Positions 5,608 to 51,609 of a DNA stretch of 64,000 nucleotides are shown here, in pieces. The stretch comes from Alphaproteobacteria bacterium (GTDB lineage: Bacteria > Pseudomonadota > Alphaproteobacteria > JASGCL01): positions 430,642-494,641 of the forward strand of contig OZ241918.1 in the NCBI GenBank assembly GCA_965203915.1. The letters are read 5' to 3'. How positions within the stretch are numbered: position 1 is the first letter of the stretch; each line of letters begins with the position of its first letter. The notes under the pieces are model-generated. The model worked only from the letters and a program-made list of their open reading frames with translations. It searched no databases and was not told the origin of the DNA. The position numbers and the translations under genes are program-made.

Positions 5608-6531
5608 TTATTTTATTTCTTTGCTTAAAAAATAAGCATAGGCATCTTTGATACCATCGACCAAAGATTTGGTGGGCTTAAATCCCAAATCATGAAAAAA
5701 TTGCGAATCCATTATTTTTTGTTTCATGCCAATTGGTTTGTCTAGCAAAAATTGCCATGTGCCTTGAAAACCCAGCACCTTGGCGGTGGCTTGGTAATAA
5801 TCTAAAATACTAATATCATGGTTAACCCCAACATTGGTCACGGCGGGTAATTTTTCAATATGCAACAAAGCGAACCAAATGGCGCCCGCCAAATCAAACG
5901 CTGACATTAATTCGCGCCGCGCCGTGCCGTCGCCCCATAATTCAACGCTCACTTTTTTTTCTTGGACGGCGTGATGAATTTTTCTAATAACCCCCGCAGG
6001 AAAATGGGAAGTTACGGCATCGAAGTTATCATAACGGCCAAACAAATTGGGCGGGATGAGGGTTTTATATTGCAAGCCAGTATTTTGTTCGGCAAAAAAT
6101 TGACATAATTTTAAGACAGACATTTTGGCCAAGCCATAACCTTCGTTGGTGGGCTCGAATGGCCCGCTCAACATCGATGCTTCCTTCAACGGGTTGGGCG
6201 CCATTTTGGGATAAATGCAAGAGCTTCCCAAATTGATTAATTTCTTTATTCCCAATTCTTTGGCGGCCAACACAACATTTTTTCCCATTTCAAAATTTTC
6301 GATTAAAAAATCGGCCTGCGCGCTAAGGTTGGCGACAATCCCGCCAACCTTTCCCGCGGTATGAATAACCGCATCGGGCGCGACATCCTTCATGGCTTGC
6401 TTAACGCTACGAAAATCGAGGAGGTCAACCTCCGCCCTTGCTGGCGCGGTGATGACATGGCTGCCCGCAAGCGGATGTTCGCGACTGTTGCGTCCCACCA
6501 TGCCGCGACCGCCCGTTAAAAAAATTTTCAT
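5608..6531 (-). CDS. fcl: GDP-L-fucose synthase (GDP-4-keto-6-deoxymannose 3,5-epimerase/4-reductase)
   Basis: 307 aa. N-terminus KIFLTGGRGMVG. Directly downstream of gmd on the same strand. Confidence 0.88.
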   Translation of the reverse strand: MKIFLTGGRGMVGRNSREHPLAGSHVITAPARAEVDLLDFRSVKQAMKDVAPDAVIHTAGKVGGIVANLSAQADFLIENFEMGKNVVLAAKELGIKKLINLGSSCIYPKMAPNPLKEASMLSGPFEPTNEGYGLAKMSVLKLCQFFAEQNTGLQYKTLIPPNLFGRYDNFDAVTSHFPAGVIRKIHHAVQEKKVSVELWGDGTARRELMSAFDLAGAIWFALLHIEKLPAVTNVGVNHDISILDYYQATAKVLGFQGTWQFLLDKPIGMKQKIMDSQFFHDLGFKPTKSLVDGIKDAYAYFLSKEIK

Positions 6532-6536
6532 GATAG

Positions 6537-7574
6537 TTATATTTTCTTTGCTTGCGCCAAATCAACTTCCGTCATTTCCTTGACCAATTGGGCAAAAGAA
6601 ATTTTGGGCTGCCAATTTAATTTGCTTTTTGCTTTGCTGGCATCGCCTAACAATGTTTCAACCTCGGTCGGGCGGAAATATCGTTGGTCCACTTTAACTA
6701 TTTCTTGGCCATTGCACAACCCAACTTCGTTTACGCCCTTGCCTTGCCAATCTATTTTCATACCCAACTCTTTGCCAACCAATTCGACAAATTCCCTTAC
6801 CGAATGTTGTTCGCCCGTGGCGATAACAAAATCTTCGGGCTTGGGTTGTTGCAACATCAACCACATGGCTTCGACGTAATCTTTGGCATGACCCCAATCG
6901 CGCAAGGCATCCAAATTACCAAGGTAGAGGGTTTTTTGTTTGCCCAATTTTATTCTGGCCAAGGCGCGGGTTATTTTACGGGTGACGAAGGTTTCGCCCC
7001 TGATGGGCGATTCGTGATTAAACAAAATACCATTGCAAGCAAAAATACCATAGGCTTCGCGATAATTAACGGTTATCCAATAGGCATATAATTTGGCCGC
7101 GGCATAGGGGCTGCGTGGATAAAATGGCGTGGTTTCACTTTGTGCTTCTTTATAAATGCCACCATAAAGTTCGGAGGTTGAGGCCTGATAATAACGCGTG
7201 GTTTTTTCTAAGCCCAAGGTGCGGATAGCCTCCAGCAAACGTAGCGCCCCCATGGCATCCGAATTGGCGGTGTATTCTGGTTCTTCGAACGATACGGCGA
7301 CGTGGCTTTGTGCCGCCAGGTTATAAACTTCATCGGGTCTAACCTTAGATAAAATATGAATAAGGCTTGATGAATCGGTCATGTCGCCATGGTGCAGGTG
7401 GAAATGGGTTTGCCCTTCATGCTCGTCATGAAATAAATGGTCAATGCGCGCGGTATTAAACAGTGAGGTGCGACGTTTGATGCCATGCACTTCATAACCT
7501 TTGTTTAATAAAAATTCTGCCAGGTAGGCACCGTCCTGTCCCGTAACCCCTGTTATAACTGCTTTTTTACCCAT
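6537..7574 (-). CDS. gmd: GDP-mannose 4,6-dehydratase
   Basis: 345 aa. [32 protein letters not shown] is the canonical Gmd N-terminus. Confidence 0.92.
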
Positions 7575-28385: not shown

Positions 28386-30395
28386 TTATTGCTTGGCAAT
28401 TTTATCAAGCATCGGCGCCAGGATGTGCCTGGCTTGCCATAGGCTGCCACTACGCGAAAGGTGATTATTATCGCGATACATGATCTCGTTTTGTTCGTTA
28501 TAAACATGGCAAACCCCATGGGGGCAGAAATAGGGCAGGCTGTAAATAATTTCCGCGCCGTGAATTTCTTTGATAATGTTGAGGTAATCGCTTTGTGCCG
28601 CCGCCATGTCGGACAATGTGACGTCGCAATTTAATGCGGGTTTAAATAATATGGGACGCCATAAACAATTGCGCGGTGCATGACGAAATTCGGGGTTGTC
28701 GGTCAAATAATGAACATGCTTGCCCAAAGAATTAAAAACATCGATGGTGTTTTGAAAAAATTGTTGATACAAATGGGGCGGTATGATCTCAAATGACGGT
28801 TTGGATTCCCAATAACCATAACCCTTGATATGGGTGCCGCGAAAGGCAAAGAAAACATCGGTGATATCTTTTTTATTTTTGAGGGCAGTGGTGATTTGTT
28901 GCAAATGGCGTCGACATCCTTCCCTATGTTTTGCGGTTTTGGCCATGGTTTCCATACCTAGCAGGGTTGGTTGGCACCAAGGGGAAAGCATAATGACATT
29001 GACGGGTTTGTTTTCTAAATAAGTTTTGATTCCGTAATAAGATTCCAAAGCATGGGAATCGCCCAGCAACAAAATTGTTTTGTTGGCCCCCTTGTCATCA
29101 ATCGCGCAAGCAATATCAAAACCATCGCCAAAATATTTTTTGCAATTTTTGATGTCGGTGGCATCGGTGTTAAAACCAACAAATTGCCGCTCGTCATAAA
29201 CGGTGGTTTTATCCTTTATCCGCCACGGCAAGCCATGATAATGATAAGTTGCCGCACCAAGCACCGCCACAACCACCATACCGCCCAGCAAGTAAAAACT
29301 TTTCCTTGTTTGGTTTTTGCCAAACCTGATGGGTTTTTCGATGAATCGATAGGTTAAAAACGCCAGGACAAATGATGCCGCCACAGCAGCGATGGTCATG
29401 GCAAGTGGCAATTCTTCCTGATTAATAATGCGTAAATAAATCAAAATAGGCCAATGCCACAAATAAAGCGGGTAGCTGATAAGGCCAATCGCCACCAGCA
29501 AGCGACTGCCCAATATATATTTGTTGAATAGCGATGTTGCGCCAGCCATCAAGATAAGCGCACTGCCCAGCACCACAGGCAAGGCGCCCCAGCCAGGGTA
29601 AATACCCGATTGAATTTTAAACAGCATGGCGTAGGCGATGATACCCACCCCGCTCAATGATAAAACATGACGTAGGAGGGATTGTATTTTTTTGTTAGCA
29701 ATATTGTTGAGGGGCGATGGCCAGCAAGCCAACAATGCCCCCGTCATTAATTCCCAAAATCGGCTAAAGGGGGAATAAAAATCGGCCGCAGTATTGTTAT
29801 GATAAACAGCAATGTTGTAAGCAAAAGACGCCAACCAAAGCAGCGACAAAATAACAGGCAAATTATATTTTTTCTTATAGGCAAGAAACATGACCAATGG
29901 CCATAGGATATAAAATTGTTCTTCGATTCCCAAACTCCATAAATGCAACAGGGGTTTCGTTTTTAAATCAAAATAATTCATGCTTTCTTGCCAAGAAAAA
30001 AGATTGCTCACAAATGCGGCGCCAGCAAAAACATGCCCGCCCAGGGCTTGGTATTCATCGGCCAACAGGGCAAAATACCCAAAGCCAAGCGCAACAAACA
30101 ACATAAGCAACAGGGCGGGGAAAATACGCCTAATGCGGCGGTGATAAAAATCGATGAAGCTGAAACTATTATTTTTTAAGCCCGATAAAATAATACCCGT
30201 GATAAGAAATCCAGAGATGACGAAGAAAATATCAACGCCGATAAAACCATTTCGTGAATAATAAGAATTGGGGAAGGCATGAAAAATGACAACCAACAAA
30301 ACCGCCACGGCGCGCAAGCCATCAATGTCACGGCGGTAAAAAGATTGTCCCTTCATGGAAGACATTGTGTAGCCATAGGCTACACAAGAAAGCAA
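28386..30395 (-). CDS. Acyltransferase-3 family membrane protein with C-terminal SGNH domain (OafA/YrhL-like O-acetyltransferase)
   Basis: 669 aa. N-terminal 10-11 TM region starting RRDIDGLRAVAVLLVVIFH. Soluble C-terminal domain. Confidence 0.8.
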   Translation of the reverse strand: MLSCVAYGYTMSSMKGQSFYRRDIDGLRAVAVLLVVIFHAFPNSYYSRNGFIGVDIFFVISGFLITGIILSGLKNNSFSFIDFYHRRIRRIFPALLLMLFVALGFGYFALLADEYQALGGHVFAGAAFVSNLFSWQESMNYFDLKTKPLLHLWSLGIEEQFYILWPLVMFLAYKKKYNLPVILSLLWLASFAYNIAVYHNNTAADFYSPFSRFWELMTGALLACWPSPLNNIANKKIQSLLRHVLSLSGVGIIAYAMLFKIQSGIYPGWGALPVVLGSALILMAGATSLFNKYILGSRLLVAIGLISYPLYLWHWPILIYLRIINQEELPLAMTIAAVAASFVLAFLTYRFIEKPIRFGKNQTRKSFYLLGGMVVVAVLGAATYHYHGLPWRIKDKTTVYDERQFVGFNTDATDIKNCKKYFGDGFDIACAIDDKGANKTILLLGDSHALESYYGIKTYLENKPVNVIMLSPWCQPTLLGMETMAKTAKHREGCRRHLQQITTALKNKKDITDVFFAFRGTHIKGYGYWESKPSFEIIPPHLYQQFFQNTIDVFNSLGKHVHYLTDNPEFRHAPRNCLWRPILFKPALNCDVTLSDMAAAQSDYLNIIKEIHGAEIIYSLPYFCPHGVCHVYNEQNEIMYRDNNHLSRSGSLWQARHILAPMLDKIAKQ

Positions 30396-30451
30396 TCAAA
30401 TAAAGAATCTTATCAAAAAATAAATAATATCGTCTAGATATTATTTATTTT

Positions 30452-30505
30452 ATCAACCGATGATAATCTTGGATCGATTTCACGGTGGTTGGGCGGGCGG
30501 TGGCG
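30452..30505. repeat. Left 54-bp direct repeat, a copy of the carB 3' terminus (53/54 identical to 31296-31349)
   Basis: Read directly: atcaaccgatgataatcttggatcgatttcacggtggttgggcgggcggtggcg. Confidence 0.95.
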
Positions 30506-31295
30506 TTTCTTAAATAATTATTTTTAATAATATTTGCTAGGTTTGTGAATAATATTGCCGTTGGCTAGGGTTATTGAATCAGGCAATAGATTTGCTTGTA
30601 TTCTGGCACTGGTTATTTCTTCCCAAAATTGGGATAGTTTTATCATGCCACTCATTTTTGTCATATTGGGTGGGGTTAAAAGAAATATGAATTTATTCAT
30701 TTCTTTTAATTTTTGGATGGCGGGTATGAAGTCAGTATCGTTGGTTATTATCATAGCGCAATCAAATTTATTTTCATAAGCATCGGCAACCATGTGAATA
30801 GACATTTTTACATCGGTCTCTTTTTCTTCATGCTTATTCCATTTGTGTTTGCATGAAGGGCATCTTGCGGCTTTTTTCTTAAAATGAGATATAGCGCAAT
30901 GAACGCCCGTTGCTTCTAAGGCCTTTATGAGGGCATTGTGCCTTTGGTAAACATCCGCGCCCAACCATGTTGCAAAAGCACTATAATAATTGACTGCTTC
31001 CAGGGTTTTGCCATCTTTGCAGAAGGATTCACATAATGATTTGATATTTATCCATTTCAATTTTTCATCATCACATTTTTTTATGCCATGATACAAATTA
31101 TAACCATCAACATATGCAAGCACTCTCATTGATTGTCCCTTTAAAAAAAGCAAGGGCGAGTGCGAAAAGATATTATCTAATCATACCCGCCCTGCACGCT
31201 CTGCTTACAAAGAAACAGAGATTAACATATAATAAACATAACAATTTGGTTGTAAATTGTCAATATAGCAATAACTACTATATTAGTTATCGCTA
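30506..31295. mobile_element. 790-bp low-GC cassette carrying the NYN gene, inserted at the carB stop codon and flanked by the 54-bp direct repeats
   Basis: Composition shift. Flanking direct repeats derive from the target gene terminus. Confidence 0.5.
30524..31153 (-). CDS. NYN-domain (LabA-like, PIN-fold) predicted nuclease; probable start MRVLAYVDGYN near 31129
   Basis: 209 aa. YVDGYNL N-terminal motif and ITNDTDF acidic motif typical of NYN/LabA. Has an embedded CPSCKHKW zinc-ribbon-like segment. Strongly AT-rich. Confidence 0.65.
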   Translation of the reverse strand: MLFLKGQSMRVLAYVDGYNLYHGIKKCDDEKLKWINIKSLCESFCKDGKTLEAVNYYSAFATWLGADVYQRHNALIKALEATGVHCAISHFKKKAARCPSCKHKWNKHEEKETDVKMSIHMVADAYENKFDCAMIITNDTDFIPAIQKLKEMNKFIFLLTPPNMTKMSGMIKLSQFWEEITSARIQANLLPDSITLANGNIIHKPSKYY

Positions 31296-34200
31296 ATCAA
31301 CCGATGATATTCTTGGATCGATTTCACGGTGGTTGGGCGGGCGGTGGCGGCGACGACTTGGGCCATGGCGCGGATGGTGGTGAAGTAAGGAATATGATTT
31401 TTCACCGCCAGGGCGCGGATGGTTTTGGCGTCGCCGCGGCTGGTGCGGCCCGCCATGGTGTTGAATATCATGGCTATTTCTTTTTTCATTAATAATGCCA
31501 ACACCGATGAAGTTTTTTCTTTTTGTTGGCTGATTTTATTCAACAGGGTGATGTTCGTCACGCCACCCGCGGTCAATGCCGCCGCCGTGCCCGCCGTGGC
31601 GCAAATGGTGAAACCCTGGGCCTGTAATTTTTTGGCAAGGGGCAGGATGGCGGGTTTATCTTCGTCCTTCACCGATATGAAAACATTGCCTTTGTCGGGA
31701 ATGCCCGCCCCCGCCGCCAATTGCGATTTGGCAAAGGACGCCGACAGGGTTCTGTCTATCCCCATCACTTCCCCCGTTGAACGCATTTCAGGGCCAAGGG
31801 CGACCTCCGCCCCCCTGATATTATTGCTATCAGAAAAATTGATAAAGCGGTCGAAGGGGAAAACCGCTTCCTTGACCGAAACAAATGGCAAGGCCTGCAT
31901 CTGCTTCACCGATAATGGTCGGGGTAGGTTTTGTAATTTTTCTCCCGCCATCACCCTCGCCCCCATTTCGGCCAGGGGATAACCCGTTGCCTTGGCAACG
32001 AATGGCGCGGTGCGGCTGGCGCGGGGATTCATTTCCAGGATAAAAATATTGGTGTAATCGCCAGCGTTATCTTTGGTGATGGCAAATTGAATATTCATCA
32101 AGCCCTTTACTTGTAATTCTTTGCCAAGCGCGATGGTTTGTTGTTCGATTTGTTGCAATGTTTTTTCCGACAGAGAAAAACTTGGCAAGGCGCAAGCCGA
32201 ATCGCCCGAATGGACGCCAGCCTCCTCTATATGTTCCATAATCCCCGCCACCAAAACTTCATCACCATCGGCGATGGCGTCGACATCAATTTCGATGGCG
32301 TCGCTTAGGTATTTGTCGATGAGCACGGGGTGTTGCTTAAAGCCATCGAGCGATGCCATCATGACCTCGTCAATAATTTTTTTAAAAGATTCTTCATCAT
32401 AGGCAATTTCCATCGCACGCCCACCCAACACAAATGATGGGCGCAACATAACGGGAAAGCCAATTTGTTTGGCAAATTTTAAGGCATCATCACGGTTGGT
32501 GGCGGTAAAATTGGCGGCCTGTTGCAATCCCAATTTATTCAGGGTTTTGTTATCCAGGGTTTTGCTGAAAAGTTTGCGGTCCTCGGCCAAATGAATCGCG
32601 TTCAAACTTGTTCCCAAAATCCTATATCCCGCATCCACAATATCCTGCGCCAATTTTAACGGGGTTTGCCCGCCATATTGCACTATCACGCCCAACACTT
32701 CGCCCCGCTCCGATTCCTTATCCAAAATATTCAACACATGTTCTGCGGTCAGGGGTTCGAAATATAATCGGTCGGCGGTGTCGTAATCGGTCGACACGGT
32801 TTCGGGGTTGCAATTAATCATGATTGTTTCGTAGCCGTGTTTTTTTAACGACAGGGCGGCATGGACGCAGGCATAATCAAATTCAATCCCCTGGCCAATG
32901 CGGTTGGGCCCGCCGCCCAAGATGACAATTTTTTTGCGGTTGGAAACATCGGCCTCGTCTTCGCCTGGTTCATACTTACCATCGACAAAATGCCCCTCGT
33001 AAGAAGAATAAAGATAAGGCGTGGGCGATGGGAATTCCCCCGCGCAGGAATCGATACGTTTGAAAACGGGGGCGATGCCAAGGGATTTGCGGCACTGACG
33101 AAGGCCTTTCTCTGTCACCCAATTCTTATCGCCAGAATAACCAGGCAACTTGTTAAAATCATACATTAACTTACTGATGGTGGCGTCGGTGTAACCGCCC
33201 TTTTTTAATGCCAAAAATTGTTCGATGGTTATCGGTGGTTTTGGACTTTTGCTGATATTTATCATCGATTCCCTTGGCTCCATACCGACAATTTCCTTTA
33301 TCTGTTGCAAAAACCATTTGTCGATATTGGTTAATTCATAAATGTTTTCTATCGATTCGCCAACGAGAAAGGCCGATGCAACATGATAGATACGGTCAGG
33401 CGTTGGCCGCGATAATAATTCTTGCCAATCCACGCCGTCCCGCCAATGAAATTGGCGTTCTTTGGGGGCATGGGGAATATCCCCAGGCACTATTTTTTCT
33501 TTGATATCGGTTAGTTGCCAACCGCTGGCCGATGGCGTCTCCAAACTGGCGATGGCCTTCATAAAACTTTCTTTAAAATTTCTGCCAATCGCCATCACTT
33601 CGCCGACCGACTTCATGGTGGTGGTCAATGTATCATCCGCGCCCTTAAATTTTTCAAATGCAAAACGCGGAATTTTTGTCACCACATAATCCAACGTTGG
33701 TTCAAAACTGGCGGGAATTTTTCCACCCGTGATGTCGTTGGGCAATTCATCCAATGTATAACCCACCGCCAACAACGCCGCCACCTTGGCAATGGGGAAT
33801 CCCGTTGCCTTCGACGCCAATGCCGACGACCGCGAAACCCGTGGATTCATTTCAATCACCACCATCTCGCCATTCTTCGGGTTGATGGCAAATTGCACAT
33901 TGGACCCGCCAGTCTCAACCCCAATTTCGCGCAACACCGCCAAACTGGCAAGGCGCATGGCTTGGTATTCTTTGTCGGTAAGGGTTAGGGCGGGGGCAAT
34001 GGTGATGGAATCGCCCGTATGCACCCCCATGGGGTCAAGGTTTTCTATCGAACAGATAATAATGGCGTTGTCGTTTTTATCGCGCACCACCTCCATCTCG
34101 AATTCCTTCCAACCCAACACCGACTGTTCCACCAACACCGAACCTTGACCATTGGTGGCAAGGTTGCTTTCTTGCAAGCCATAGGTAACCTTATCAAAAT

Positions 34201-34780
34201 ATTCTTGGGTGTGATGGGCAATGCCGCCGCCGCGCCCACCCAGGGTAAAACTGGGGCGAATGATGGCTGGCAAGCCAATTTTTTGTAATGCCTCCTTGGC
34301 ATCATCTTGATCCTTAACCAACATGGCGGCGGGGGTTTTTAACCCGATACGTTTCATGGCTTGGCGAAATTGTTCGCGGTCTTCGGCCATGTCAATCGCG
34401 GCGGGTCGCGCGCCAATTATTTCTATACCCAATTCTTCCAACACCCCATTTTTATGCAACGCCATGGCGGTGTTAAGGGCGGTTTGCCCGCCCATGGTGG
34501 GAAGCAGAACCATTTTTTCATCGGGGTGTAATTCTCTTTCGCGTTTTAAAATATCCGCAACAACCTCGGGCGTGATAGGTTCGATGTATGTCGCATCGGC
34601 CATGCTCGGGTCGGTCATGATGGTCGCGGGGTTGGAATTAACCAGGGCGATACGATACCCCTCCTGCTTCAATGCCTTGCAAGCCTGGGTGCCAGAATAA
34701 TCAAATTCGGTGGCCTGACCGATAACTATCGGTCCCGCGCCAATGATAAAAATGGCTGAGATGTCTTTTCTTCTGGGCAT
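31283..34780 (-). CDS. carB: Carbamoyl-phosphate synthase large subunit
   Basis: 1165 aa with duplicated ATP-grasp halves. N-terminus [18 protein letters not shown]. No carA adjacent. Confidence 0.95.
31296..31349. repeat. Right 54-bp direct repeat; this is the authentic 3' end of carB (encodes ..[21 protein letters not shown])
   Basis: Read directly. Its partner is at 30452-30505. Confidence 0.95.
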
Positions 34781-40956: not shown

Positions 40957-42387
40957 ATGCATTTATCGGTTTTTGATTTGTTTAAAGTGGGGATTGGGCC
41001 TTCCAGTTCTCATACCGTGGGGCCCATGGTCGCCGCGAAACGTTTTGTTACCGACCTTAGCACGCAAAAAAAATTGTTTGACGTTGCTAGCGTCACGGTG
41101 AAATTATATGGGTCCTTGGCCCTGACGGGTTTGGGCCACGCGACTGACCGTGCCATTGTGCTGGGTTTAATGGGCGAACGCCCCGATGAAACCGACCCGA
41201 ATTTGGTCGAAGAAAAAATCAAAACCTTGAAAGAAAAAAAACATCTATTGTTGGATGGCGAGCACGATATAGAATTTGTCTATGAAAAAAATTTGGATTT
41301 TCGTTATGGCGAGTTTAAAGAAAAACATTCCAACACCATGGAATTCATTGCCACCGACAAACAGGGTCAGGAATTATTTCGTGATACCTATTATTCAGTT
41401 GGCGGCGGTTTTGTATTAAGCGATGAAGAATTTGAACGCGGCACCAGCAATGTGGCGGCGGCCGCCAATTTAACCGTGCCGAATATTTTTAATAATGGCG
41501 AGGAGTTATTAAACATCGCCAAAAAAAAGAACATGACCATCGCCGAGGTGTTGATGGAAAATGAATTAACCTGGCGCAAGAAAGAGGATATTGAAAAGGG
41601 CATAGATAAAATTTGGGCGGTGATGGAAGCCTGCATCCAGCGTGGTATAAGCCAAGAGGGGATATTGCCTGGCGGCCTTAATATTCGGCGCCGTGCCAAG
41701 CAGATAGCCGACAATTTGGATAGGTCGAATCAAGAAATAAAAATGAAATTAGGGGCTATCAATTTGGAAGATATTCCGATGAAGACGATGGATTGGGTTA
41801 ATGTTTTTGCTTTGGCAGTTAACGAGGAAAATGCAGCGGGTGGGCGCGTTGTCACCGCCCCCACCAATGGGGCGGCGGGGGTTATACCCGCGGTGATGGC
41901 CTATTATCATCGCTTTGTCCCAGGGGGGAAGGATGTAAAAAACCTTCGTATTTTTATGTTAACCGCGGCGGCGATAGGGATGCTGTATAAAAAAAATGCC
42001 TCCATTTCCGCGGCGGAGGTTGGATGCCAAGGCGAAGTTGGCGTGGCATGTTCGATGGCGGCGGCGGGTTTGACGGCGGCGATGGGCGGCACGATGGACC
42101 AAGTGGAAAATGCCGCCGAAATTGGCATGGAACATAATTTGGGGCTGACTTGCGACCCTATCAATGGTTTGGTTCAGGTGCCGTGCATCGAGCGCAACAC
42201 CATGGGGGCGGTGAAGGCCATCAATGCGTCGCGCCTGGCCCTGCATGGCGATGGCACGCATTTGGTGTCGTTGGATAAAGTCATTGAAACCATGATGGAG
42301 ACAGGCAAAGACATGTTGCATAAATACAAAGAAACATCCGAAGGCGGCTTAGCCACCAAGGTTTCGGTTGCCTTACCAGAATGTTAG
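40957..42387 (+). CDS. sdaA: L-serine dehydratase (Fe-S, single chain)
   Basis: N-terminus [27 protein letters not shown] extends upstream to 40921. Confidence 0.9.
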
Positions 42388-42430
42388 GGTTAGGAAAGTT
42401 TTTTAATGTTAGGGTTAGGAAAGTTTTTTA
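42381..42430. repeat. 25-bp perfect tandem duplication (atgttagggttaggaaagtttttta x2) spanning the sdaA stop codon
   Basis: Read directly. The second copy supplies the apparent ATG of the next ORF. Confidence 0.9.
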
Positions 42431-51296: not shown

Positions 51297-51373
51297 GTTC
51301 CCGTAGCTCAGCTGGATAGAGCGTAGGATTCCTAATCCTAAGGCCGTTGGTTCGAATCCAATCGGGAACGCCA
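51297..51373 (+). tRNA. tRNA-Arg (anticodon CCU)
   Basis: Cloverleaf folded by hand: acceptor gttcccg/cgggaac, D-stem gctc/gagc, anticodon stem tagga/tccta with loop ttCCTaa, T-arm gttgg-ttcgaat-ccaat, 3' CCA encoded. Confidence 0.85.
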
Positions 51374-51447: not shown

Positions 51448-51479
51448 GGGCCGTTGGTTCGAATTCCATCGGGAACGCC
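51448..51479 (+). repeat. Direct repeat of the 3' 32 nt of tRNA-Arg (30/32 identical), 75 bp downstream of the gene; att-site-like
   Basis: ggccgttggttcgaattccatcgggaacgcca versus tRNA 51342-51373 ggccgttggttcgaatccaatcgggaacgcca. Confidence 0.85.
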
Positions 51480-51609
51480 AAATACAAATACTCAACACCA
51501 TAAAAAAAACCATGTGCCAAAAGATAACGCGCACAAATGCGGGTTATTATTTGACAACATGGTAATTTTCAACCACAGCCGAAAAAAAAATTATCGGCTG
51601 GTCCTTTTG

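Follow-up and report, generated by a model that had tools for sequence, protein, structure and literature searches.

A one-gene nuclease cassette between two copies of the carB 3' end: a candidate minimal integrative element with sisters at unrelated gene ends

Introduction

How does a single foreign gene come to lie between two copies of the end of a housekeeping gene when nothing beside it encodes an enzyme that could have placed it there? This question is raised by a 64,000-nucleotide stretch of an Alphaproteobacteria bacterium genome (GTDB lineage Bacteria; Pseudomonadota; Alphaproteobacteria; JASGCL01; assembly GCA_965203915.1, contig OZ241918.1, positions 430,642 to 494,641 of the forward strand), referred to here as the window, in whose coordinates positions are given unless another contig is named. 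At carB, which encodes the large subunit of carbamoyl-phosphate synthase, the window contains an AT-rich segment with one gene for a predicted NYN-domain nuclease. A first-pass annotation, made from the letters of this stretch, had described direct repeats at both borders of the segment and had offered three explanations: a minimal or decayed integrative element, a homing-type nuclease cassette, and a one-gene defence or toxin module.

We find that the segment has the anatomy of an att-type integrative element pared down to a single, regulated nuclease gene, that its protein belongs to the HEC-09 family, and that cassettes of the same build recur at unrelated gene ends. For one of these sister cassettes the empty site is on record, and in two other sister loci the flanking repeats are allelic versions of the target gene end rather than duplicated host sequence.

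Results

A 790-bp insert bounded by copies of the carB end

The carB gene, the two repeats and the nuclease cassette all lie on the minus strand (Table 1). The carB reading frame is intact, and both borders of the insert are direct repeats made of the carB end, as the first-pass annotation had reported: the two 54-nt copies are identical at 53 positions and differ by a single A/T mismatch. When up to 3 mismatches were allowed, the 54-mer had only two matches across the 64-kb window, whereas none was expected by chance (100 shuffles). Between the copies lie 790 bp (30506-31295) with a GC content of 0.32-0.41, compared with 0.50-0.55 in adjacent carB and 0.45 in the whole window, and the NYN gene is the only open reading frame (ORF) of this insert that has family support. 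The longer, TTG-started ORF that a mechanical list gives for this gene starts within the leader hairpin described below; the closest orthologue (P0001) starts MRVLAY, and the ATG start is used here.

The cassette has no terminator of its own, its trailer being 18 nt long. Immediately past the distal repeat stands a perfect AT-rich hairpin with a T run, which probably serves as terminator for the NYN gene and for read-through from carB; this hairpin is part of a neighbouring, later insertion and not of the cassette. Neither an integrase pseudogene or other debris within the 790 bp nor an inverted repeat at the cassette ends was found.

Table 1. Features of the carB locus in window coordinates.
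Feature	Position	Strand	Basis or remark
carB (carbamoyl-phosphate synthase large subunit), target gene	31283..34780	-	1165-aa ORF
carB tail SDN plus stop, last three codons, junction product	31283-31295	-	11-bp deletion relative to contig L001
Proximal direct repeat, attL-like: final 18 codons of carB, to HRLI	31296..31349	-	matches L001 5770-5843 (74 nt)
Putative sigma-70-like promoter, TTGACA-17-TGtTATGTT	31235..31263	-	10/12 consensus match, extended -10 TG
Leader hairpin 1, CTCTG..CAGAG	31199..31220	-	read from sequence
Leader hairpin 2: long GC-rich stem (31150-31195), then seven T (31143-31149)	31143..31195	-	sequence and fold
NYN-domain nuclease gene, 201 aa, ATG start, CxxC..H insert, HEC-09	30524..31129	-	Pfam, PADLOC, alignment, AF2 model
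Trailer, 18 nt, NYN stop to distal repeat	30506..30523	-	sequence
Distal direct repeat, attR-like: orphan copy of carB 3' end	30452..30505	-	matches L001 6625-6698
Perfect 15-bp AT-rich hairpin plus T run, immediately past distal repeat	30417..30451	-	inverted repeat; missing at this position in L001
AT3 acyltransferase plus SGNH gene, 669 aa, between NYN cassette and mlaE	28386-30451	-	Pfam

A second genome separates the original junctions from later changes

The closest homologue of the NYN protein (P0001, 98% identical) is encoded on a 412-kb metagenome contig (L001) with the gene order carB-NYN-mlaE-mlaF and flanking DNA that is about 93% identical to the window; the CPSase and MGS Pfam families were matched on its carB orthologue. 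In L001 the repeat is 74 nt long (73/74 identical) and spans the carB stop and 10 further bases, and both copies encode a protein end HRLIRK followed by the stop, which is the ancestral carB tail. In the window the carB-attached copy has lost 11 bp between two ATTAG motifs, and its SDN tail is the product of this later deletion at the junction. The first-pass view of this copy as the authentic end of carB stands, therefore, as far as it encodes the tail of carB, but not for the last codons. Similarly, the alternative ending ascribed to the other copy is present, since the distal copy in the carB frame encodes TVKSIQDYHRLIK and a stop, but its final IK and stop are the product of an adjoining, later insertion that truncated this copy and brought in a 669-aa AT3/SGNH acyltransferase gene not present in L001. 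This second insert is bounded by a 10-nt microhomology alone (TTGATAAAAT), and the stop codon of the acyltransferase gene reuses the ancestral AGCAATAA. Because the L001 repeat includes the carB stop and 10 bases beyond it, the insertion point of the cassette lies 10 nt past the stop and not precisely at it, as had been proposed. Since the window, and not L001, holds the AT3/SGNH insert, the carB-mlaE spacer is demonstrably an insertion hot spot.

Two further comparisons bear on how the repeats and the cassette have behaved since. At one site, and one only, both window copies read ATCCAAG and both L001 copies read ATTCAAG, which suggests ongoing exchange between the repeat copies. Among codons for identical amino acids, the fraction that differs between the two genomes is 0.04 in the NYN gene, 0.066 in the last 325 carB codons, 0.08 at the carB N-terminus and 0.127 in mlaE/mlaF. 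These values hint, weakly, at homologous recombination that moved the cassette together with some 1 kb of carB. As a separate observation, carB itself looks like a recombination mosaic: over codons ~400-840 (32260-33580) 19-46% of residues differ from L001, compared with 0.5-4% in the rest, and the L001 protein has about 27 extra residues in that middle part.

The cassette encodes a HEC-09 nuclease

The NYN protein matched the Pfam family NYN (PF01936) with 64.1 bits (cut-off 24.2; E 2.6e-17), the sole Pfam family above its cut-off. The motifs YVDGYNL, ITNDTDF and CPSCKHKW, on which the first-pass annotation had relied, are present and fall on invariant or near-invariant columns of an alignment of 30 homologues (30-98% identity). 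Residues D9, G10, N12, Y14, H15, E102-E105, D107, D124, D132 and D134 are invariant in this alignment, including the five aspartates on whose conservation the nuclease call hung, and C91, C94 and H101 are nearly so. An AlphaFold2 (AF2) model (pLDDT 94.9, pTM 0.89) has the three-layer alpha/beta/alpha organisation of a PIN-like fold; its sole strong match in the PDB is 2qip, a LabA-like NYN protein (E 7e-8, 16% identity), whose VDVQN and SGDGDF stretches align with the DGxN and DxD motifs. The call of an NYN-fold, metal-dependent nuclease stands as a prediction from alignment and model.

In PADLOC the protein corresponds over its full length to HEC-09 (PDLC04163; E 1.4e-49, residues 2-200 against 3-202 of 203). 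All five cassette proteins that were checked belong to this family, the four sister proteins (about 32-39% identical to the window protein) with E-values of 6e-48 to 2e-60. HEC-09, for Hma-embedded candidate 09, was described as a single-gene candidate embedded in Hma defence loci and was called MARF1-like with three conserved aspartates (Payne et al., 10.1101/2024.01.29.577857); a term search of that paper gave no mention of flanking gene-end repeats. The defence role that comes with the name is a label for this protein and not a result. Family members were found at more than 560 loci of GTDB species representatives from many phyla, on 49 viral contigs and on 131 plasmids, among them 3.5-kb enterobacterial ColE1-type plasmids on which the NYN gene is one of four annotated genes. 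The HEC-09 family is thus patchy and is carried on mobile DNA.

Sister cassettes recur at unrelated gene ends

Pattern searches gave more than 1,100 family matches, and more than 540 of 600 were confirmed in each of two collections, again from many phyla. About 210 loci were fetched, the chromosomal ones comprising 80 from GTDB species representatives and 80 from metagenomes, and 147 of these plus 43 viral loci were screened for flanking repeats. We used a geometry-constrained screen in which the 400 nt upstream of the ATG were compared with the 400 nt downstream of the stop (ungapped score >=17). Nine of 147 loci reached this score, or 7 of 145 without L001 and a second relative of the window locus (L002), compared with 1 of 147 in a reversed-sequence null and 5 of 300 at shifted control positions, four of the latter through long, diverged paralogue repeats. 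Flanking repeats of high identity were accordingly present in 7/145 family loci versus 1/300 shifted controls and 1/147 in the reversed null. A first blastn screen of 900-nt flanks had shown no enrichment (4/79 versus 12/211 shifted controls); the control matches there were mostly long, diverged paralogue repeats, and only the geometry-constrained comparison at high identity separates the two sets.

At least four other lineages hold a repeat-flanked cassette of the build seen in the window (Table 2), located at other gene ends and at one low-complexity site, with leaders of 117-214 nt, trailers of 3-18 nt and cassettes of 768-826 bp. No conserved termini or inverted repeats were found across the ends of the sister cassettes. 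Beside these stands a segment that lies 1 kb downstream of the NYN gene of another family locus (L047), in which a 68-nt, 96% direct repeat (5673-5740 and 6862-6929) surrounds 1.1 kb with two small ORFs; because of this segment, repeat-flanked mini-cassettes are not limited to NYN cargo.

Table 2. Repeat-flanked family loci. Repeat lengths are adjusted where a gapped alignment extends them.
Locus	Repeat	Target	Leader	Trailer	Cassette
Window	54 nt	carB 3' end	163 nt	18 nt	790 bp
L001	74 nt	carB 3' end	157 nt	18 nt	781 bp
L027 (Nitrobacter)	37 nt	last 33 nt of cmk including stop, plus 4 nt (Pfam)	184 nt	14 nt	816 bp
L146	56 nt	3' end of convergent gene	178 nt	8 nt	798 bp
L129	178 nt	first 133 nt of uvrA plus upstream region, divergent orientation	117 nt	3 nt	768 bp
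L160	~205 nt	low-complexity sequence, target not identified	214 nt	3 nt	826 bp
L124 (looser case)	95 nt	3' part of ParB-methyltransferase gene (Pfam)	237 nt	116 nt	965 bp
L085	20 nt	tRNA 3' end
L024	40 nt	tRNA-Cys; extra ORF

An empty site and the nature of the repeats

Four Nitrobacter-type contigs (L163, L164, L165 and L220) carry a cmk gene that is 92-93% identical to the cmk flanking the L027 cassette. In each of them cmk directly adjoins the sequence found past the distal L027 repeat, the 37-mer is present once and an NYN gene is lacking; this is the empty form of the cmk site. Because such empty sites exist, the 853-bp unit made up of the cassette and one repeat is a discrete insertion.

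The repeats of two further loci are informative about their origin. At the ParB-methyltransferase locus (L124) each copy, read in frame, encodes a C-terminal tail of the methyltransferase (SPQYVDVIIRRWQGHTGQQAIRLGDGANFN in one, SPQYVDVIIRRWQAHTGQQAVRLNDGINFN in the other). The differences between the two are largely synonymous: the copies are alleles that evolved in different genomes under selection. At uvrA (L129) the 133-nt coding block is 99% identical between the copies, and identity then drops abruptly to about 70% in the uvrA upstream region. Both patterns argue that the repeats are att-like gene ends borne by the element and not target duplications of a transposon. Because of them, the element would carry its own copy of the target end and recombine within the shared part. 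Together with the empty cmk site, these allelic copies favour the first-pass comparison with integration at a gene terminus, and its picture of foreign DNA that is low in GC, holds one gene and no integrase, and lies between duplicated gene ends is likewise borne out.

Two observations concern the cmk spacer itself. In a Nitrobacter relative (L218) the cmk-rpsA spacer holds another single gene (1835-2584), encoding an outer-membrane beta-barrel protein, without a gene-end repeat. In every Nitrobacter spacer there is also a stretch, GTCGAGGCCG.CCGAGCGGGCCGG, with 18 of 23 positions like those of the cmk 3' end (~3270-3300 in L164, ~3440-3470 in L027), possibly a relic of an older integration or a chance similarity.

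A structured leader precedes the nuclease gene

By consensus match, a putative sigma-70-like promoter opens the window cassette and is followed by a leader with two hairpins (Table 1), the T run of the second ending 13 nt upstream of the NYN ATG. The fold of the 108-nt leader has a free energy of -35.2 kcal/mol (z -4.96). In this minimum free energy (MFE) fold the 3' tail of the leader closes around hairpin 2 by pairing with the hairpin-1 stretch; local hairpin 1 is possibly an alternative to that pairing, and the long hairpin 2 alone is common to both. From its sequence, hairpin 2 with its T run resembles a terminator or attenuator, and we infer that the leader acts as an attenuator that holds the nuclease off.

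The wider family has a different, conserved leader, in which a -10 box and UCAUCCC precede an 8-bp hairpin, a second hairpin rich in GC and finally a U run; it ends 4-45 nt upstream of the NYN ATG (examples, among the related loci L003-L216, are L049 327-383 and L010 3925-3981). A covariance model (R1) was built from 37 family leaders and matched about 80 of 99 further loci and then about 75 of 100 more, nearly all on the same strand and just 5' of the NYN gene. An R1 leader thus stands upstream of about 75-80% of HEC-09 genes, in many phyla and on viral contigs. Its covariation score of 0.435 was reached in 0 of 500 shuffles (0.168) and exceeded all values obtained with the partners slid (at most 0.196). 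Helix 1 is the cleaner one, with 89% of cells paired and 7 of 8 pairs changed on both sides. MAFFT plus RNAalifold alone recovered only hairpin 1, and since hairpin 2 was obtained from a hand-given structure and re-alignment, its pair counts lean to the given structure. Two tandem copies of the R1 leader are present at each of L085, L086, L041, L051 and L077, and L079 has a second copy 2 kb away.

Neither the R1 leader nor the window leader matched Rfam at gathering or permissive thresholds, and R1 gave only 3.4 bits on the window leader with filters off, which is no match. The window leader is thus only analogous to R1: what they have in common is an arrangement with two hairpins plus a T run, and homology is not claimed. 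The leader copies of L002 have a hairpin at the same place as hairpin 1 of the window and the same overall layout.

In L002, which encodes a 59%-identical homologue, the promoter-plus-leader unit is present three times (577-1630): before a 14-codon 5' fragment of the NYN gene, before the intact gene, and after the gene ahead of an M23 peptidase gene. The leader itself makes the flanking direct repeats there, while L140 duplicates the promoter only.

The source of the joining activity

No recombinase gene lies within the cassette, whose 790 bp hold the NYN gene only, and inspection of N-termini, with Pfam run on a subset only, revealed no integrase-like ORF in the 64-kb window. Clustering of 417 neighbour ORFs gave no conserved neighbour partner of the family; a cluster with a tyrosine-integrase-like N-terminus was present at about 4 of ~150 loci and an IS1595-like cluster at about 5 of ~150, both identified by eye and not by Pfam. 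In the window the cassette is present once, and the only two loci from one assembly (L056 and L079) are divergent.

Several known kinds of element were considered and set aside. For a transposon or insertion sequence, there is no transposase and there are no terminal inverted repeats or conserved termini; repeat length varies between 20 and ~205 nt, with allelic copies in two cases, and the window holds a single copy of the cassette. The homing-type nuclease of the first-pass annotation finds no support either: NYN is the sole Pfam match and is no known homing family, there is no intron or intein context, and homing makes no direct repeats, which are present here. The template and variable repeats of a diversity-generating retroelement were rejected since the copies differ by one A/T mismatch and inspection, short of a full Pfam scan, showed no adjoining ORF like a reverse transcriptase. 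As for an integron cassette, the hairpins lie upstream of the ORF, where they are accompanied by a promoter and a T run; neither attC nor IntI was evident, though no formal test was made. Finally, an IS110-like guide function of the leader was dropped because leader-to-target complementarity in seven cassettes was no better than in shuffles.

Other loci in the window

Elsewhere in the window, housekeeping genes of 46-53% GC enclose a single gene of 30% GC whose product has a DUF3800 domain (16158-16943, minus strand; E 6e-10); it is isolated and foreign-looking, and no flanking direct repeat >=12 nt was seen. The tRNA gene at 51297-51370 has 33 nt of its 3' end repeated downstream at 94% identity (51449-51481; distance given as 107 nt), and this copy looks like an att site left behind by an integrative element that is no longer there. 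The first gene of the window is immediately preceded by a tandem array (105-439) that has a period of 37 nt and at least 7 copies, some of which are identical to one another. A 623-aa ORF of 38% GC and without a Pfam match has a perfect 25-nt tandem duplication at its start (42380-42429).

Discussion

We favour, with a probability of about 0.55, the reading that the window contains a minimal integrative cassette that relies, in trans, on a helper integrase or on recombination by the host to join the chromosome. On this account a 790-bp module, consisting of a promoter, a structured leader with a terminator-like hairpin and one HEC-09 nuclease gene, would have entered the chromosome as a small integrative cassette. 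Recombination between a carB 3' end borne by the cassette and the chromosomal carB 3' end would have left carB intact with a copy of the gene end on each side (attL- and attR-like), originally of 74 nt, of which 54 nt are recognisable now. Because the cassette encodes no recombinase, the joining enzyme would be supplied in trans, either as the integrase of a helper element or through host homologous recombination acting on a circular or flanked copy; the latter is conceivable because the homologies measure 37-178 nt. Once in place, the leader terminator 5' of the start codon would keep the nuclease largely silent, and the NYN gene would use the terminator beyond the distal repeat. The nuclease itself would most likely act as a toxin-like or anti-phage RNase that aids persistence of the cassette. 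Two of the first-pass explanations, the minimal integrative element and the one-gene defence or toxin module, therefore both fit and are not mutually exclusive, the protein being HEC-09.

A number of observations weigh against this reading. No empty carB site was found, and the sole relative retrieved (L001) is also occupied; a search with the C-terminal 299 aa of carB gave only 40-50% identical fragments and no close relatives, and exact look-ups of the window NYN and MlaF proteins found none on record. No recombinase, circular form or excision junction was seen. The copies at the window and L027 loci are almost identical, and on these loci alone a target duplication is possible. If repeat quality is ignored, the enrichment of flanking repeats is weak (7/145 versus 5/300 shifted controls); about 93% of family loci are without a flanking repeat, and none was found at any of the 43 screenable viral-contig loci, which makes the repeat-flanked state a minority and possibly a transient one. 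Moreover, because a HEC-09 representative gave no protection from the tested phages in the one published test (10.1101/2024.01.29.577857), a defence or toxin role is unproven. The leader may explain this missing phenotype, as the gene was possibly switched off by its own leader.

The strongest competitor, which we nevertheless consider unlikely, is that the cassette is the remnant of a larger island or prophage with an integrase of its own that had integrated at the carB 3' end and of which all but the NYN module and the att repeats has been deleted. Integrases are known to insert such elements in gene 3' ends while providing a replacement end, as with phage 21 and e14 in icd and with streptococcal integrative and conjugative elements (ICEs). 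The two tRNA-flanked family loci (L085 and L024) look like ordinary decayed islets, the few loci that adjoin a tyrosine-integrase-like N-terminus point the same way, and so does the presence of the family on phages and plasmids. However, five lineages (the window with L001, L027, L146, L129 and L160) end 3-18 nt past the NYN stop and 117-214 nt before the ATG, although their targets are unrelated and their proteins only about 35% identical, and such repeated end points are not expected from independent decay. The lack of an integrase pseudogene or debris in the 790 bp also speaks against a remnant.

Less probable still is an origin without any dedicated mobility, in which homology-facilitated illegitimate recombination or the repair of a staggered break captured the gene and the repeat is a by-product of one event. 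That the carB-mlaE spacer is a hot spot whose second insert is bounded by the microhomology TTGATAAAAT only, that the cmk-rpsA spacer of L218 has a different single gene without a gene-end repeat, and that the cassette termini are not conserved would all be in keeping with accidental capture. Such capture does not explain why cassettes with the same boundaries and with long gene-end repeats turn up again in several phyla, and it leaves unexplained the allelic, synonymously diverged copies of the target end.

We regard it as improbable, and more so than accidental capture, that the cassette is an autonomous element in which the NYN protein, with or without the structured leader, cuts and joins DNA at gene ends. 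The idea draws on the fact that the cassette consists of a promoter, a leader and the NYN gene only and yet recurs between repeats at unrelated targets, on the invariant Y14 and H15 beside the catalytic aspartate and the conserved CxxC..H insert, and on a leader that is conserved across phyla with strong covariation. The layout is superficially like that of IS110, which combines a non-coding RNA with a single ORF. Against it stand the lack of terminal inverted repeats or conserved ends, repeats that vary from 20 to ~205 nt and in two cases are allelic and not duplicated host sequence, leader-target complementarity at the level of shuffles with hairpin loops of only 4-5 nt, and the lack of recent multiple copies. 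PIN/NYN enzymes are known as hydrolytic nucleases, and we know of none that is a recombinase. If an NYN-driven element were nonetheless real, it would be the first recombinase or transposase with a PIN-like fold, and it would be smaller than any other known autonomous integrative element. Chance similarity or an assembly artefact is effectively refuted, the shuffle test having given no expected matches and two independent assemblies showing the arrangement with different small changes of their own.

Under the favoured reading of a cassette joined in trans, the locus shows, in a concrete case that recurs, how one accessory or defence-type gene can be placed beside an essential gene, leaving it unbroken, without a recombinase of its own. 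If the cassette moves as a circle of about 0.85 kb, its embedding in operons and defence systems becomes testable, as do the choice between a helper integrase and homologous recombination and the role of the nuclease in retention.

How does such a cassette relate to known systems? The likeness to HEC-09 comprises a full-length match to the family model, a single gene, an NYN fold, conserved aspartates and a position nested between the genes of other systems, although the published loci are Hma defence loci and the window gene lies between the housekeeping genes carB and mlaE. In fold and acidic active-site pattern the protein resembles the eukaryotic NYN RNases MARF1 and Regnase-1/ZC3H12A and the bacterial LabA-like 2qip, from which it differs in its distant sequence (16% identity to 2qip) and in two additions of its subfamily, a beta-hairpin insert with the CxxC..H pattern and an extended C-terminus. 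Type III toxin-antitoxin systems (ToxIN, CptIN and TenpIN) share the succession of a promoter, a short structured RNA, a terminator-like hairpin and a gene of ribonuclease type, and some family loci even have two tandem leader copies. We rejected this assignment for the window cassette because it has a single leader unit and no tandem array, and an NYN fold instead of that of ToxN/AbiQ.

The minimal mobile elements of Neisseria are accessory modules that spread by homologous recombination in flanking core genes. Like these, the cassette is a single module without mobility genes between conserved genes, with a hint of co-transfer, and the concept of integrase-less toxin-antitoxin or defence islets that spread through homologous recombination in flanking core genes has been stated (PMC13617665). 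Unlike the double crossover by which such modules and islets are exchanged, which makes no direct repeats, the NYN insert is bracketed by a duplicated gene end. It is in this respect that the cassette comes close to gene-end integrative elements and their integrase-less derivatives. The cis-mobilisable elements (CIMEs) of Streptococcus thermophilus are derivatives of this kind, and the targets of streptococcal ICEs include fda and rpsI. The NYN unit differs from them in measuring only about 0.8 kb, in having a single cargo gene and lacking genes for integrase, excisionase and transfer, in a helper recombinase that is hypothetical, and in the recurrence of the minimal unit at unrelated targets. 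It shares with them an intact target gene, direct repeats of the gene end on both flanks and, in its sisters, gene-end copies that are allelic.

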